43,949 bases of DNA from a virus: the UHGV virus genome UHGV-0179878; one strand, 5' to 3'. Shown one piece after another: positions 1 to 43,949 of the stretch. The notes below the pieces were generated by a model. It was given only the letters and a program-made list of their open reading frames with translations, was not told where the DNA came from and did not search any database. Positions within the stretch are counted from its first letter, which is position 1. Every line of letters starts with the position of its first letter. The translations under genes and the position numbers were made by a program.

Positions 1-1070
1 TCGTTCTGTTCAGGGTTATCGACCGAAGTTTTAGGTTTAATCTTTATGGTTGTCTTTGTAGTTGTTGTGGTAATCGTTTCTGTGAGTAATTTATCTCTTT
101 TTAAATATAAACCTATTATTTTCTTTTCAACTTCTTTATATTTACTTTCATCAGGAATACCGTTTTTGATTAAGTCGTAATTAATTAAATCTTTCATAGA
201 ACGCCATATATTAGGGTCTGCTTTGATTGATGATTCAGATAGTTTTACCTTACTCCAACTTAGCAACCAAACGCCGTAGATTAACGCTCTGATTTGATTG
301 AGCATGAATTGCCGTTTACTCTCTGTTTGTCCTCCACAAACTTCCATAACAAGCCAACCTGGATGTTCTGGCGCTTCTTCTGAATCAGGTCTAGGCGTCC
401 ATACACGCTCACGGTCTATATATACATGAGGGTATTCATCCTCATTTACATATTTATTACGTTGTAAATATAATTCTTCAACAGAACGCATATGTGTACT
501 CTCTTTGATATATATACCTTTTACTTTCCCTATCAACTTTTGACCTTCAACCATATAATGATAAATGTACTCCAAATCATCGTCTAAATCATATGCGAAT
601 GATGTATAGGAAACTTTAGTAACCTCTTTGGTTATAGGTTTCGTTTGTTCTTTTTTGTTTTTAGGAGTGTTGTCATTAGAGGGTTTAGACGGTGTGTTAC
701 TTGATTTAGATGGTTTCTTAGTTTCTGCATGATAAGGAGGTCTGACGAACCCACTTATACCATAGTATGTGTGTTTTTCTAACGAACCAGGAGAACCGGT
801 ATAACCGTTGGAATTTCGCCAATTTTGGTCCACACTGGTGAAGTAACTCTTGTTAGATGGACCTACTACAACAGCTGTATGTCCTGTACCATTATTATAG
901 GAACCCTTTCCCCAAACTGCCATGTCACCAGGTTTCGGAACAAAGTTTCTAGTATTTCTATAAAATTTAAATCCTCTAGGGTATCTATACCATGCCATAG
1001 CTATAGCGTTTCCTGTTGTTTTAAAATGCCAATATCTATTGAAAATGTAGTTTGGTAAATCCCAACATTG
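1..1070 (-). CDS. Virion-associated peptidoglycan hydrolase (HydH5-like), exon 2, 5' part. It runs off the window start and continues in frame at 43949.
   Basis: My own translation of the minus strand gives ...QCWDLPNYIFNRYW...KPGDMAVWGKGSYNNGTGHTAVVVG...VDQNW, which is the Cys and His halves of a CHAP domain (compare LysK DGYYHAQCQDL...). No stop occurs before position 1. The frame leaves an incomplete codon, GA, that is completed by the T complementary to position 43949. Confidence 0.75.
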
Positions 1071-2053
1071 CGTTTGTATTTAACTTAACGCCTTTCCCCG
1101 CATTAATTTCTTAATACGCTTGTGTAACGTTAAATTGCTCTATAAAAAGAGCCTCATGCTTTCACATGAGACTAGACTATATCTTAATATTCATTTTTAG
1201 CTTTTTTATAAGCTAAGTGTGCTTCTTCTGCAGTTTCATAAACACCTAAGTATATAAATTTCTTGTTTTTGTAAAGCTGCGCTTGATATTTGTTTAGATG
1301 TGGTTTGTAAGTTACTCCTGTATATCCTGTCTTATTATGATATTTTCGTCGATTGTTTGCATTTTCTTCATGACTAACCCATCTGCAATTTGATGGTTTA
1401 TAATCGTCATCGTTGTTAATTCTGTCTAATTCAGCACCTTCGAATGGTACATCCCCCATATCTTTGTAGAATTGCATAAAGTCATCTTTCCACTCATCAC
1501 AAACCTTTATACCTCTACCGCCATATGCGCTGTAAAAATCATAGTTAGAGTTGTAACATCGTTGCTTCATACCTTTCCATTTATTATAAATTAAAGTTCC
1601 AGTCATACCATGTTTTTTAGAATGACTAACTTTATTCAAACAACCACAACTTTTAGAATAACCATTTTTCACTTCGGTACCAATCATTATTTTTTCATTA
1701 CCGCATCTCGTACAGTAACATTTATATAGTTTCTTTTTATGTTTATTTCTGCCATAAAACTCTAGAACTTTAAGATAATTAAACTGCATTCCTACAATGT
1801 CCATTTGACCGCTCCTTATCAATCGTCAAATACATTGTATCACACATGAATATTTAATGCACTGCCTATCAATTGATAGTACATAGTCGTTGAAGCTTCC
1901 TCTACTATTACCATAGAGGCTTGCCTGCTGATTGCCCAATCCTTAATATTTTTTAACTTTCACGCTTACCGTTACCAGTTACGTTGTAGTTATTAAGGTT
2001 CTAAGGGTGTCCCAGCAATTCACATTATTTTTTTACATGGAACCCATTAATTA
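1071..2053 (-). mobile_element. Group I intron (983 nt) interrupting the CHAP domain, carrying an HNH homing endonuclease ORF.
   Basis: Exon 1 ends ...DVDGYYGA then TAA; exon 2 resumes QCWDL. The joined sequence matches the contiguous CHAP motif DxDGYY(G/H)AQC(W/Q)DL. The 5' exon ends in U and the exon end GGAGCU can pair with the intron sequence GGUUCC about 10 nt in, giving P1 with a U.G wobble at the splice site. The intron's last nucleotide is G. A free-standing HNH ORF sits inside. Confidence 0.7.
1184..1822 (-). CDS. Intron-encoded HNH homing endonuclease (HNH_3 motif plus C-terminal AP2 DNA-binding domain).
   Basis: 212 aa. HNH_3-like motif ...ELDRINNDDDYKPSNCRWVSHEENANN. AP2-like segment TGYTGVTYKPHLNKYQAQLYKNKKFIYLGVYETAEEAHLAYKKA. 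Lies wholly within the intron between the two hydrolase exons. Confidence 0.75.
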   Translation of the reverse strand: MIRSGQMDIVGMQFNYLKVLEFYGRNKHKKKLYKCYCTRCGNEKIMIGTEVKNGYSKSCGCLNKVSHSKKHGMTGTLIYNKWKGMKQRCYNSNYDFYSAYGGRGIKVCDEWKDDFMQFYKDMGDVPFEGAELDRINNDDDYKPSNCRWVSHEENANNRRKYHNKTGYTGVTYKPHLNKYQAQLYKNKKFIYLGVYETAEEAHLAYKKAKNEY

Positions 2054-2161
2054 AGCTCCATAATAACCATCTACATCAACTCTTCTGCCAATCATCCTTT
2101 TTGCCCATGCTGCAACTTCCGAAGCAGTAGGTTTTCTTTTTTTAGGGCTAGGTAATCCCAT
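2054..2161 (-). CDS. Virion-associated peptidoglycan hydrolase, exon 1 (N-terminal 36 aa of the CHAP domain).
   Basis: RBS AGGTGG, then ATG. Encodes MGLPSPKKRKPTASEVAAWAKRMIGRRVDVDGYYGA followed by TAA, which falls inside the intron. Matches the N-terminus of LysK/HydH5-type CHAP domains up to the residue before the catalytic Cys. Confidence 0.65.
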
Positions 2162-20846: not shown

Positions 20847-22139
20847 TTACGTAAGTATGCTAAGTTTATTCTGCCTCATGTCACGCTCTAAGGCGTATCT
20901 AGTGGCGTCTATTGTGTGATTGTCTTTATCTTCTAATCTCGGTTTAACGTTGCCGTCTTTGTCAGTTTCATAGTCGATATTCTCAAACTCTCTCGCTATA
21001 TTAGGTGTTCTGTTAGGATCTATCACAATAGCTGTTAAATCATCAAGCCATTGTTCTCCGTGTTCTACACTGTCAGGACCTTTTTTCACACCTTTAATTC
21101 TCTTGATACCGTGTTCTTGTTTCAGCTCTGCGATTGATTTCGGTTCAGCGCTATCTGCGAATATTTCATCTGATTGATAGCCTCTACGCTTTAACCAGTT
21201 AGCAAACTCTCTATTGCTTATTTGTACACCATAGTGTTCATCAACTGCATAGATAATACGTTTCTTCTTATCATAGTGCCAACGTACAAATGCCAACGGA
21301 TCAGTAGCATAACCAAAGTCAACTGCATTACGTATATTATCGAATGTCTTGTGTAAGTCATCAGGTATCTTCTCTATTTGCAAGTTGTTAAACGGTACAA
21401 CGCCACTACCAATAGCTTCACCCATATATTCCCAACGATAACGTTGTTCGTTACGTTCTTTTGCACTCTCTGCCTCTTGTATAAACTGTTTAGAAATAAA
21501 AGGGTTATCTAAGTACGTTGAATGGTGTACGAACGTATTATCCGGTTGGAATGAGGTCTCATATTTTTTGTTAACCCACGATTGTTTTCTCTTAGGTGGG
21601 TTGTAACTAAAGAAAAACTTGTAAAACAATCCGTCATCTAATTCTCCACGTAACATAGAGTTAGTAATTGTCGTAACTTCATCTTCTGTCTTAAATTCTG
21701 CTAACTCCTCTATCCACATGATAGAAAAAGGGAATCGACTATCTTTTAACGACTTTAATCGTTCAGGGTTCTGCGCCCCTCTAAAGATAATCCGATTCCC
21801 TCTAGGAACATACGTAATTTCCATTGGCGACACTTTGACTTTGAACAGGTGCGACACCTTTTGTTCTTCTATCGCCCACTTAATTTGCTCAAATACTGAT
21901 GTAGCTAATGTATTGTCTGTCTTACGTACTACAACTGCATTCATAGGATAACGCATGATTAACTGTGTAATGATGATAGATATGTCAGACGACTTACCAC
22001 TACCACGTCCACCTTTAGCTACTATGTTCAACTTCTCTCTATCTTTAGTCGCTTTCCATAAGCTATGAAAGTGTTTAGGTAACAGTTCAGATAGATTAAT
22101 CGATATCGTCATTGAACTGTACCGTCGCAGTTGTTTCAA
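20847..22139 (-). CDS. terL: Terminase large subunit (pac-type).
   Basis: 430 aa. Walker A-like VAKGGRGSGKS near the N-terminus. Overlaps the terS 3' end. Confidence 0.85.
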   Translation of the reverse strand: MKQLRRYSSMTISINLSELLPKHFHSLWKATKDREKLNIVAKGGRGSGKSSDISIIITQLIMRYPMNAVVVRKTDNTLATSVFEQIKWAIEEQKVSHLFKVKVSPMEITYVPRGNRIIFRGAQNPERLKSLKDSRFPFSIMWIEELAEFKTEDEVTTITNSMLRGELDDGLFYKFFFSYNPPKRKQSWVNKKYETSFQPDNTFVHHSTYLDNPFISKQFIQEAESAKERNEQRYRWEYMGEAIGSGVVPFNNLQIEKIPDDLHKTFDNIRNAVDFGYATDPLAFVRWHYDKKKRIIYAVDEHYGVQISNREFANWLKRRGYQSDEIFADSAEPKSIAELKQEHGIKRIKGVKKGPDSVEHGEQWLDDLTAIVIDPNRTPNIAREFENIDYETDKDGNVKPRLEDKDNHTIDATRYALERDMRQNKLSILT

Positions 22140-43216: not shown

Positions 43217-43949
43217 TTATCTATATTTATCTCTAATGTAATACATACCTTTTAAACCAATTTGTTTATATAAATTATTAATTGTAATAGCTTGATGTTG
43301 AGCCCACTCTATAGCAGTAGCATATTGATGTGTAGCAGGATGTTTAGGGTTCCATCTAATTCTATATAATGTGTTTTGTCCTTTGTTGATGTAGTCTTTT
43401 CTCACGAAACTAGCTCCACCCATAATAGCTTTTGCTGGAGTAGTCCAACCTCTTTTTCTAGCGAATGTCATTGAATAATTAGGGTTGTTATCATATGCAC
43501 CGATACCAAAGTAGTTATAAGCCCCATATCTACCACTAGCGAAGTTACTTCGGCCATATCCACTTTCTAGGAAAGCATGAGCGATTAAATATATCTCGTT
43601 AATATTATTCTTTTTACACCCCTCAGCAAATGCTTTACCTTGACCGGATAGGGTGCCTTTACCTTTAAGTATCTTGTTTAATTTACTTACTGATATACCT
43701 TGATACTTACCTAAATCTAGCATTTGATACCTTTGTACTGAACTATTCCATATAGTGTTAGGGTTCATATACTTACTTGTTTGTGACCTAGAAGCATTTC
43801 CCCAACCCCAACTATAAGATTTTTGAGGCATGCCATGAGCCATTTGTGCATTAAGTGCTTGTTGGAAAGTATATTTACTTTTCTCTACAACTACACGAGG
43901 TTTATTTGAAGTTCTATTTGTCTTTTTGCCTTTTTTGTCTGTTGGTTTA
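43217..43949 (-). CDS. Virion-associated peptidoglycan hydrolase, 3' part: C-terminal GH73/LYZ2 glucosaminidase domain. Its 5' continuation is at 1..1070 of this window.
   Basis: ...IYLIAHAFLESGYGRSNFASGRYGAYNYFGIGAYDNNP... is the mannosyl-glycoprotein endo-beta-N-acetylglucosaminidase signature. The frame is open upstream to the window end and matches the frame leaving position 1. Confidence 0.75.
   Translation of the reverse strand, partial: KPTDKKGKKTNRTSNKPRVVVEKSKYTFQQALNAQMAHGMPQKSYSWGWGNASRSQTSKYMNPNTIWNSSVQRYQMLDLGKYQGISVSKLNKILKGKGTLSGQGKAFAEGCKKNNINEIYLIAHAFLESGYGRSNFASGRYGAYNYFGIGAYDNNPNYSMTFARKRGWTTPAKAIMGGASFVRKDYINKGQNTLYRIRWNPKHPATHQYATAIEWAQHQAITINNLYKQIGLKGMYYIRDKYR

Follow-up and report, generated by a model that had tools for sequence, protein, structure and literature searches.

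We found a group I intron of IA-like structure in a Rockefellervirus-type S. epidermidis phage, where it interrupts the gene for a tail-associated peptidoglycan hydrolase with CHAP and glucosaminidase domains. The window, i.e., the whole stretch of viral DNA that was analysed, is 43,949 nt long (UHGV-0179878), and the intron occupies 983 nt of its minus strand (1071..2053). In the reading that we favour, to which we assign a probability of roughly 0.85, the intron splits the tail hydrolase gene, is removed by standard splicing, and carries in the loop of its P8 helix an open reading frame (ORF) whose product is most likely a homing endonuclease. An intron in a phage gene is as such a textbook phenomenon, and the ORF-bearing intron described here belongs, as an unremarkable representative, to a family known from staphylococcal phages; an intron at this site was already proposed in 2014. 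The notable points are the corrected gene model, a nuclease motif with Arg in place of His, a 2-nt shift of the insertion site with adaptation of the guide sequence, and the presence, within 6 bp, of sites for two introns that do not occur together.

Exon 1 (2054..2161, minus strand) consists of 36 codons, from ATG at 2161 to GCT at 2056..2054, and encodes MGLPSPKKRKPTASEVAAWAKRMIGRRVDVDGYYGA; its tail GGA GCT lies at 2059..2054 and is directly followed by TAA (2053..2051). After the 983-nt insert (2053..1071), the frame resumes at 1070 with CAA TGT TGG GAT (QCWDLPNYIFNRYW...), where CAA UGU encodes Gln37-Cys38 and Cys38 is the catalytic Cys of the CHAP domain. The first part of exon 2 (1..1070, minus strand) exits the left end of the window. 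If the window is a circularly permuted genome, exon 2 continues at 43217..43949 (minus strand) with a glucosaminidase domain and a stop codon; read as such a complete genome (1 -> 43949, gene end 43217), it gives a spliced product of 636 aa containing both the CHAP and the glucosaminidase domains. RefSeq names the orthologues 'tail associated cell-wall hydrolase'. Every coordinate given in the first-pass annotation is correct in the sequence, as is the 983-nt length of the insert, and the exon and the intron end in U and G (1071), respectively, as it had noted.

When the exons are joined, the junction GGAGCU|CAAUGU is read as ...DVDGYYGA-QCWDL..., and the peptide over the junction is ...GYYGAQCWDLPNY.... 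The intron begins with UAAUUAAUGGGUUCC and ends with ...ACAAACG. The earlier claim that the CHAP domain is split just before its catalytic Cys agrees with the domain search: the insertion point is one codon ahead of Cys38, and the Pfam CHAP domain (PF05257) spans the junction, with spliced residues 31-119 corresponding to profile positions 4-81, and exon 2 alone enters the profile at position 10. The downstream part had also been described as having no start codon. Indeed, a TAA is located four codons upstream of CAA, and no start codon was found in the exon-2 frame between this TAA and Cys38. The first in-frame ATG of exon 2 is Met61, downstream of the catalytic Cys38.

The uninterrupted gene cn25 of CNPH82 (633 aa), whose N-terminus matches exon 1, served as the intron-less homologue with which a comparison had been suggested. 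When the window was spliced at GCT|CAA, the protein was identical to that of CNPH82 across the junction. The DNA differed at 4 of the 90 nt compared (window/CNPH82: GAT/GAC, GGA/GGC, GCT/GCC, and CAA/CAG), and all four differences are synonymous and located within 20 nt of the site. One of them concerns exon position -1, which is U in intron-bearing alleles only and C in the intron-less CNPH82; the U is needed at the 5' splice site for splicing. The intron boundaries were thus set to the base by CNPH82 cn25, and the ORF-less orthologue of phage DW2 also supports them. Furthermore, exon 1, its start codon, and the junction frame are preserved in the copies from S. epidermidis, S. aureus, S. xylosus, and S. 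hominis, which suggests selection for splicing and which we count as support. The high titre reached by DW2 (PMC4124061) and the in vivo splicing reported for a different intron 6 nt away in PH15 point, indirectly, in the same direction.

The intron was numbered so that intron nt i equals window position 2054 - i, with the in-frame UAA first and omega-G (1071) last. The first-pass annotation had proposed that the exon end GGAGCU pairs with GGUUCC at intron nt 10-15, giving P1 with U.G at the splice site. This helix is present and is in fact 8-9 bp long: the last 8 nt of exon 1, AUGGAGCU (2061..2054, minus strand), pair with the internal guide sequence GGUUCCAU (2037..2044, minus strand; intron nt 10-17), and the G10.U-1 wobble lies at the splice site. 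The 5' half of the core (1855..2027, minus strand; intron nt 27-199), delineated by the Rfam alignment, pair counts, and the minimum free energy (MFE) fold, contains the 5' strand of P3, P4, P5-P5a-P5b-P5c with a GUAA loop, P6-P6a, the 5' strand of P7 (1888..1883), P7.1, and the 3' strand of P3. P2 is absent from the 983-nt intron. The 5' strand of P8, AAUAUUC (1848..1854, minus strand; intron nt 200-206), pairs with GAAUAUU (1186..1192, minus strand; intron nt 862-868), and this 3' strand consists of the last two sense codons of the ORF and the first base of its stop codon (GAA UAU UAA). The 3' part of the ribozyme (1071..1185, minus strand; intron nt 869-983), delineated by the second Rfam match, pair counts, and the fold, contains J8/7 AAGAU, the 3' strand of P7 (AUAGUC, 1180..1175), P9 with a GAAA loop, P9.1, P9.2 and P9.2a with a GAAA loop, and omega-G. 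The J8/7-P7 segment AAGAUAUAGUC is present. P10 is weak by eye. The P7.1 hairpin (intron nt 175-188) was 100% paired in the family, with changes on both sides in 4 of its 5 pairs and on one side in the remaining pair; since it lies between P7 and P3', the intron was placed in subgroup IA.

The suggested Rfam scan of the insert for Intron_gpI (RF00028) gave two pieces when the region was searched alone. The first (2063..1809) scored 40.2 bits (E = 1.7e-08) and extended from P1 through the P8 region, and the second (1187..1155) scored 21.3 bits and covered J8/7-P7 and a hairpin. The two pieces are split exactly by the ORF, i.e., by the 652-nt insert in L8, and both are below the gathering threshold of 50 bits. 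The ORF-less DW2 copy at the same site was matched without a break and reached 80.1 bits, well above this cut-off of 50; accordingly, Rfam support at the curated level comes from the DW2 orthologue and not from the window itself. Scans of the whole window gave no Rfam match either at the gathering threshold or permissively; as they missed the known intron, they do not exclude other introns in the window. In a motif scan, all four core motifs occurred together at 1175..2020 only. A terminator-like match at 1173..1150 and an Rfam match to the SpF51 sRNA (E = 0.002) proved to be the P9/P9.1 hairpins. A promoter scan of the window gave 5 matches compared with 7.0 expected by chance, and hence no evidence of an intron-internal promoter.

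The structure was built by hand and tested against nine aligned members of the family, with the interior of L8 removed. The members were taken from annotated phages because most matches in a pattern scan of viral contigs were distantly related phage group I introns, L110 being the sole close relative. The core helices P3-P7 were sought and found. Standard pairs were formed in 96.9% of 642 cells, compared with 33-43% when the partners were slid by 1-3 columns; both sides had changed in 46 of the 80 pairs, and none of 500 shuffles reached the covariation score. Covariation was observed in P3 (5 of 7 pairs), P5a, P6, P6a, P7.1, P9, P9.1, and P9.2/P9.2a. P4 and P5 were largely invariant, with a single covarying pair in each, and P7 did not vary. 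P8 is formed at the base of the ORF loop in all family members, and its strands are unrelated in sequence. P1 was tabulated per sequence and not by alignment column, since subgroups differ by 2 nt in the position of their splice site. In all ten sequences P1 was formed with U.G, the last base of the intron is G in each relative, and the guide changes along with the exon at the differing insertion sites (GGAU/AGUCC, GGGU/AGCCC, GCGU/AGCGC, and GGAGCU/GGUUCC). In addition, the same helices were obtained when the mini-intron was folded without constraints (MFE, z = -7.4). Taken together, the Rfam match, the covariation, and the boundaries fixed by the intron-less allele identify the insert as a group I intron, as the first reading had it.

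In the phage collection, the full intron was found in BE28 (99.8% identical) and PG-2021_93 (99.7%) only; one IMG/VR contig also carries it. Prophage copies of the ORF, 72-91% identical and in the same arrangement, occur in S. aureus, as a cluster of 147 sequences with the same site, in S. xylosus, again with the same site, and in S. hominis. In the S. hominis copy, the splice site is 2 nt upstream (GGGU|AUCAAUGU, compared with GGAGCU|CAAUGU here), and the 3' halves of the ribozymes are nearly identical. Homologous hydrolase genes number about 200, most of them uninterrupted, and the intron is patchy among near-identical phages. The ORF-bearing form carries no intron annotation in BE28, PG-2021_93, or the prophages, and the annotations of BE28 and phiIPLA5 show a truncated hydrolase gene only. 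We found no published account of the ORF-bearing form, including that of BE28, in a literature search.

The intron ORF (1184..1804, minus strand; 206 aa plus stop) is located wholly in the P8 loop (L8), in agreement with the peripheral position that had been ascribed to it. The 212 aa reported earlier hold for the ORF as listed (1822..1184, from TTG); however, ATG at 1804 is the better start, has the Shine-Dalgarno sequence AAGGAG (1817..1812) ahead of it, and gives the 206 aa of the BE28 annotation. Apart from the AP2 domain at its C-terminus, the product has a Cys4 cluster, the motif YGGRGI, and an HNH-like motif (LDRINN...NCRW...EEN). Of the HNH_3+AP2 content stated in the first-pass annotation, the AP2 part was confirmed by Pfam (PF00847, 33.5 bits against a cut-off of 33.3), and the ORF has the AP2 fold. 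The HNH_3 part was not: none of the Pfam HNH families matched the ORF even at E <= 10. The NCBIfam models gave no match with the ORF, and a PDB search with its single sequence returned AP2 domains only. HNH-like homology was detected by a nine-sequence profile, which matched the HNH motif of I-HmuI (1U3E) with E = 0.005 and aligned VVDHKDGNKDNNLSTNLRWVTQKINVEN with ELDRINNDDDYKPSNCRWVSHEENANN; by homology and fold, the ORF thus contains the beta-beta-alpha-metal motif. It also matched PHROG 374 (9e-83), whose name 'HNH endonuclease' comes from annotation and not from a functional assay.

In the alignment of homologues, the Cys4 cluster and Asn139 are invariant, Asp127 and Asn151 occur in at least 90% of the sequences, and YGGRGI is conserved. 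Arg128, which aligns with the His of the D-H dipeptide of I-HmuI, is invariant in 36 homologues. This His is said, by Shen et al. in 2004, to be the general base. The label 'HNH-AP2' therefore seems correct as far as homology and fold are concerned, whereas canonical HNH chemistry is not assured with Arg in place of His. The ORF family is large (5,415 matches); for the best 120 homologues, the precomputed Pfam matches are mostly to AP2 and none is to an HNH domain. The ORF is intact, is 72-99% identical among the tail-hydrolase copies of the four host species, and has homologues of 48-52% identity (tblastn) in related introns that interrupt other genes, where they too lie in L8 in every case.

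These features suggest the following mechanism. P1 would be formed by the guide GGUUCCAU and the last bases of exon 1; its U.G wobble would mark the 5' splice site, and an external guanosine at P7 would attack this site. The terminal G (1071) would next occupy the G site, and ligation of the exons (GGAGCU|CAAUGU) would restore the catalytic Cys38 in an intact CHAP domain. On unspliced RNA, ribosomes would stop after 36 residues because the first intron codon is UAA. The ORF product, with its AP2 and HNH-like beta-beta-alpha-metal domains, would nick or cut intron-less hydrolase alleles near the Gln-Cys codons. With the intron-bearing copy as the template for repair, the intron would be passed on between co-infecting phages and prophages. 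Homing endonucleases typically target the codons of critical residues (PMC3984707).

The intron might splice while its ORF does not encode an active homing endonuclease; the product might be a remnant that still binds DNA, assist in the manner of a maturase, or act as a nuclease of other chemistry, and the present distribution would then result from ordinary phage recombination with no ongoing homing. We regard this as rather unlikely. It would account for the missing Pfam and NCBIfam HNH matches, for the invariant Arg128 at the position of the I-HmuI His, for best homologues that are mostly AP2 proteins with no HNH domain, and for the persistence of the ORF-less form in DW2. On the other hand, an inactive ORF would hardly be expected to stay intact with its Shine-Dalgarno sequence and to be conserved across four host species, or to accompany introns of other genes in the same L8 position. 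Likewise, the conservation of Asp127, Asn151, Asn139, and the Cys4 cluster is as expected of a working beta-beta-alpha-metal site, and the patchy occurrence of the intron among near-identical phages is the usual signature of mobility.

It is far less probable that the insertion has decayed and no longer splices, so that the gene is broken and yields a peptide of 36 aa together with a hydrolase that lacks its N-terminus and the catalytic Cys and has a structural role in the tail only. Keary et al. weighed this idea for DW2, with reference to the structural role of the phi11 hydrolase (PMC4124061). The truncated gene models of BE28 and phiIPLA5 and the existence of a downstream ATG (Met61) are also in line with it. 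However, the ribozyme helices are maintained by compensatory changes, P1 covaries with the exon, and exon 1 and the junction frame are kept in the lineages of four host species; moreover, U at exon -1 is confined to intron-bearing alleles, and the frame from the in-frame stop to Cys38 offers no start codon. Finally, a free-standing HNH/AP2 cassette between two genes, with no ribozyme and with a coincidental continuity of the CHAP domain, is refuted, common as free-standing HNH genes are in these phages (e.g., PH15 ph58), by the ORF-less DW2 insert at the same site with its score above the curated Rfam threshold, by the P8 and conserved core formed by the ORF flanks with their covariation, and by the junction that matches the intron-less CNPH82 allele exactly.

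A hydrolase gene split by an intron with its own ORF calls for corrections to existing records. The hydrolase is called N-truncated, lacking the catalytic Cys, in the phage of the window, BE28, PG-2021_93, phiIPLA5, and many staphylococcal prophages, and the intron ORF is labelled as a transcription factor, a dUTPase, or a plain 'AP2 protein'. Tail hydrolases such as HydH5 and THDW2 are under development as enzybiotics. The truncated hydrolase ORF gave a weak enzyme when cloned (Keary et al., PMC4124061); hence, the true spliced N-terminus matters.

The closest known system is that of DW2. The first-pass annotation was uncertain whether the insertion site had been described; in fact, Keary et al. 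proposed in 2014 a group I intron in the DW2 hydrolase at exactly the same site (PMC4124061). The basis of their proposal was solely a BLAST similarity to Twort nrdE-I2, and neither a structure nor splicing was presented; they noted that the intron lacks an endonuclease, deferred the characterisation, and described DW2 as growing to high titre (PMC4124061). DW2 and the window share the gene and the site (GCU|CAAUGU), and the ribozymes are 90% identical over both halves. The hosts differ, being S. aureus for DW2 (Phietavirus) and S. epidermidis here. The DW2 insert has 349 nt and aligns to intron nt 1-206 and 859-983, with 19 nt where the window has the 652-nt middle section (the ORF and its leader in L8). 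It lacks the ORF but retains AAUGAAUAUUAA, the last codons of the ORF, as the 3' strand of P8.

A different group I intron, also at the catalytic Cys, is found in the orthologous hydrolase gene (ph24) of PH15 and sister phages. It is inserted 6 nt downstream of the site in the window, after the Cys codon, and it is ORF-less, 246 nt long, has P2, and scores 94-96 bits; only the catalytic core is common to the two introns. This type was found in 14 staphylococcal records, including PH15, phiIPLA5, E72, and BE01, and none of the genomes searched carried both types. In the PH15 record, only two CDSs are given as joins, and ph24, in two pieces, is one of them; the two introns of PH15 are reported to splice in vivo in a passage of PMC7235722 that cites Daniel et al. 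2007. E72 hyd was predicted by Fisarova et al. in 2021 to contain a noncoding intron (PMC8125051), and introns are not mentioned in the phiIPLA5 paper. The locus is therefore a compact natural system with three alleles (intron A, intron B, and none) within 6 bp in near-identical phages, in which the competition of introns and the drift of target sites could be studied.

Introns of the same ribozyme family as that in the window also occur in the endolysin gene, in place of the tail hydrolase gene, of Lacachita, JDF86, PT94, PG-2021_46, PMBT8, 184DA, and OPT-SC01, and wherever they have an ORF, it is a homologous AP2 ORF in L8. In JDF86, Lacachita, PT94, and PG-2021_46, the CHAP domain is split just before Gln-Cys at GGAU|xxCAAUGC, 2 nt upstream of the site in the window. 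The introns of PMBT8 and 184DA split the GHG motif of the amidase, and that of OPT-SC01 is located at DADG|YYHAQC. As a tentative possibility, which we hold with low confidence, a single intron lineage may have been re-targeted repeatedly between CHAP-coding sites, both between endolysin and tail hydrolase and by a 2-nt slide within tail hydrolases, with the guide sequence changing to match each time. Simple homing would hardly produce such moves, and they would hint at transposition of a reverse-splicing or otherwise non-canonical type, possibly linked to the invariant Arg-for-His replacement, and the lineage may compete with the unrelated intron for the 6-bp window at the catalytic Cys.

HNH-type endonuclease ORFs are also carried by the phage group I introns Twort nrdE-I2, with I-TwoI, and that of the Bacillus phage SPO1 DNA polymerase gene, with I-HmuI. 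The host genes of these introns differ from the hydrolase gene of the window. Furthermore, I-HmuI has the D-H dipeptide and no AP2 domain, whereas the ORF described here combines D-R with AP2.

The site of the 983-nt group I intron (window 2053..1071, minus strand) lies beside that of a second group I intron within the gene for the tail-associated hydrolase. The sister phages PH15 (L003:2200-2445) and phiIPLA5 (L001) carry a different, ORF-less intron of 246 nt, which was found in 14 staphylococcal phage records. This intron is inserted after the Cys codon, 6 nt downstream of the site used in the window and equivalent to window position ~1064. No genome was found to contain both introns together. 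These results suggest that the 983-nt and 246-nt introns are mutually exclusive, because the insertion of either one would break the target of the other.

The insertion site also shifts within the lineage of the 983-nt intron itself. In the tail hydrolase of a Staphylococcus hominis prophage (L135-L137), an intron of the same lineage is located 2 nt upstream (GGGU/AUCAAUGU, where the slash marks the insertion site), whereas that in the window is located at 2054/1070. The same 2-nt upstream position was observed in several endolysin CHAP domains (L130, L006, L129, and L132). The splice site tracks the nearest U of the codon preceding Gln, and the guide sequence, which pairs with the end of exon 1, is adapted to match.

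In the family of the intron-encoded protein (window 1184..1804; residues 31-55, 94-99, and 127-151), a Cys4 cluster is invariant and a YGGRGI motif is conserved, and an invariant Arg occupies the position of the catalytic His of HNH enzymes. Despite more than 5,000 homologues, no model for the nuclease-like domain was found in the curated libraries Pfam and NCBIfam. In the P8/L8 region of most relatives (L130, L131, L127, L006, L129, L128, and L132), a near-consensus promoter, TTGACA-N17-TATAAT, was observed directly upstream of the ORF or its former site, and its -35 hexamer forms the 5' strand of P8. This promoter is absent from the window, where only TGTGATACAAT (~1847..1835) was found, and from the ORF-less intron copy of Staphylococcus aureus phage DW2. 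The P9/P9.1 hairpins coincide with an Rfam match to the SpF51 sRNA (window 1132..1178; 31 bits, E = 0.002) and with a terminator-like hairpin (1150..1173), both of which most likely arise from how the ribozyme folds.

Public annotations near these introns disagree (L001, L002, L129, and L006). The hydrolase is annotated as N-truncated in the phiIPLA5 and BE28 records. Exon 1 is listed as a 36-aa hypothetical protein of its own. The intron ORF is labelled dUTPase in PT94 and "AP2-domain transcriptional factor" in other copies. Separately, a "lysin" of Xanthomonas phage SU1 (OR842880, 38246..38530) showed 78-92% DNA identity to the 5' end of the staphylococcal hydrolase gene, which is odd for such distant hosts; the record could be contaminated or chimeric, or the sequence could have been transferred recently.

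The window is a complete, circularly permuted phage genome cut within the hydrolase gene, which becomes whole once position 1 is joined to 43949 (pieces 1..1070 and 43217..43949). Unlike that of PH15, which is interrupted by a ~970-bp intron carrying the SegB-like endonuclease ph3, the large-terminase gene of the window has no such intron at the corresponding site (21308..21313).
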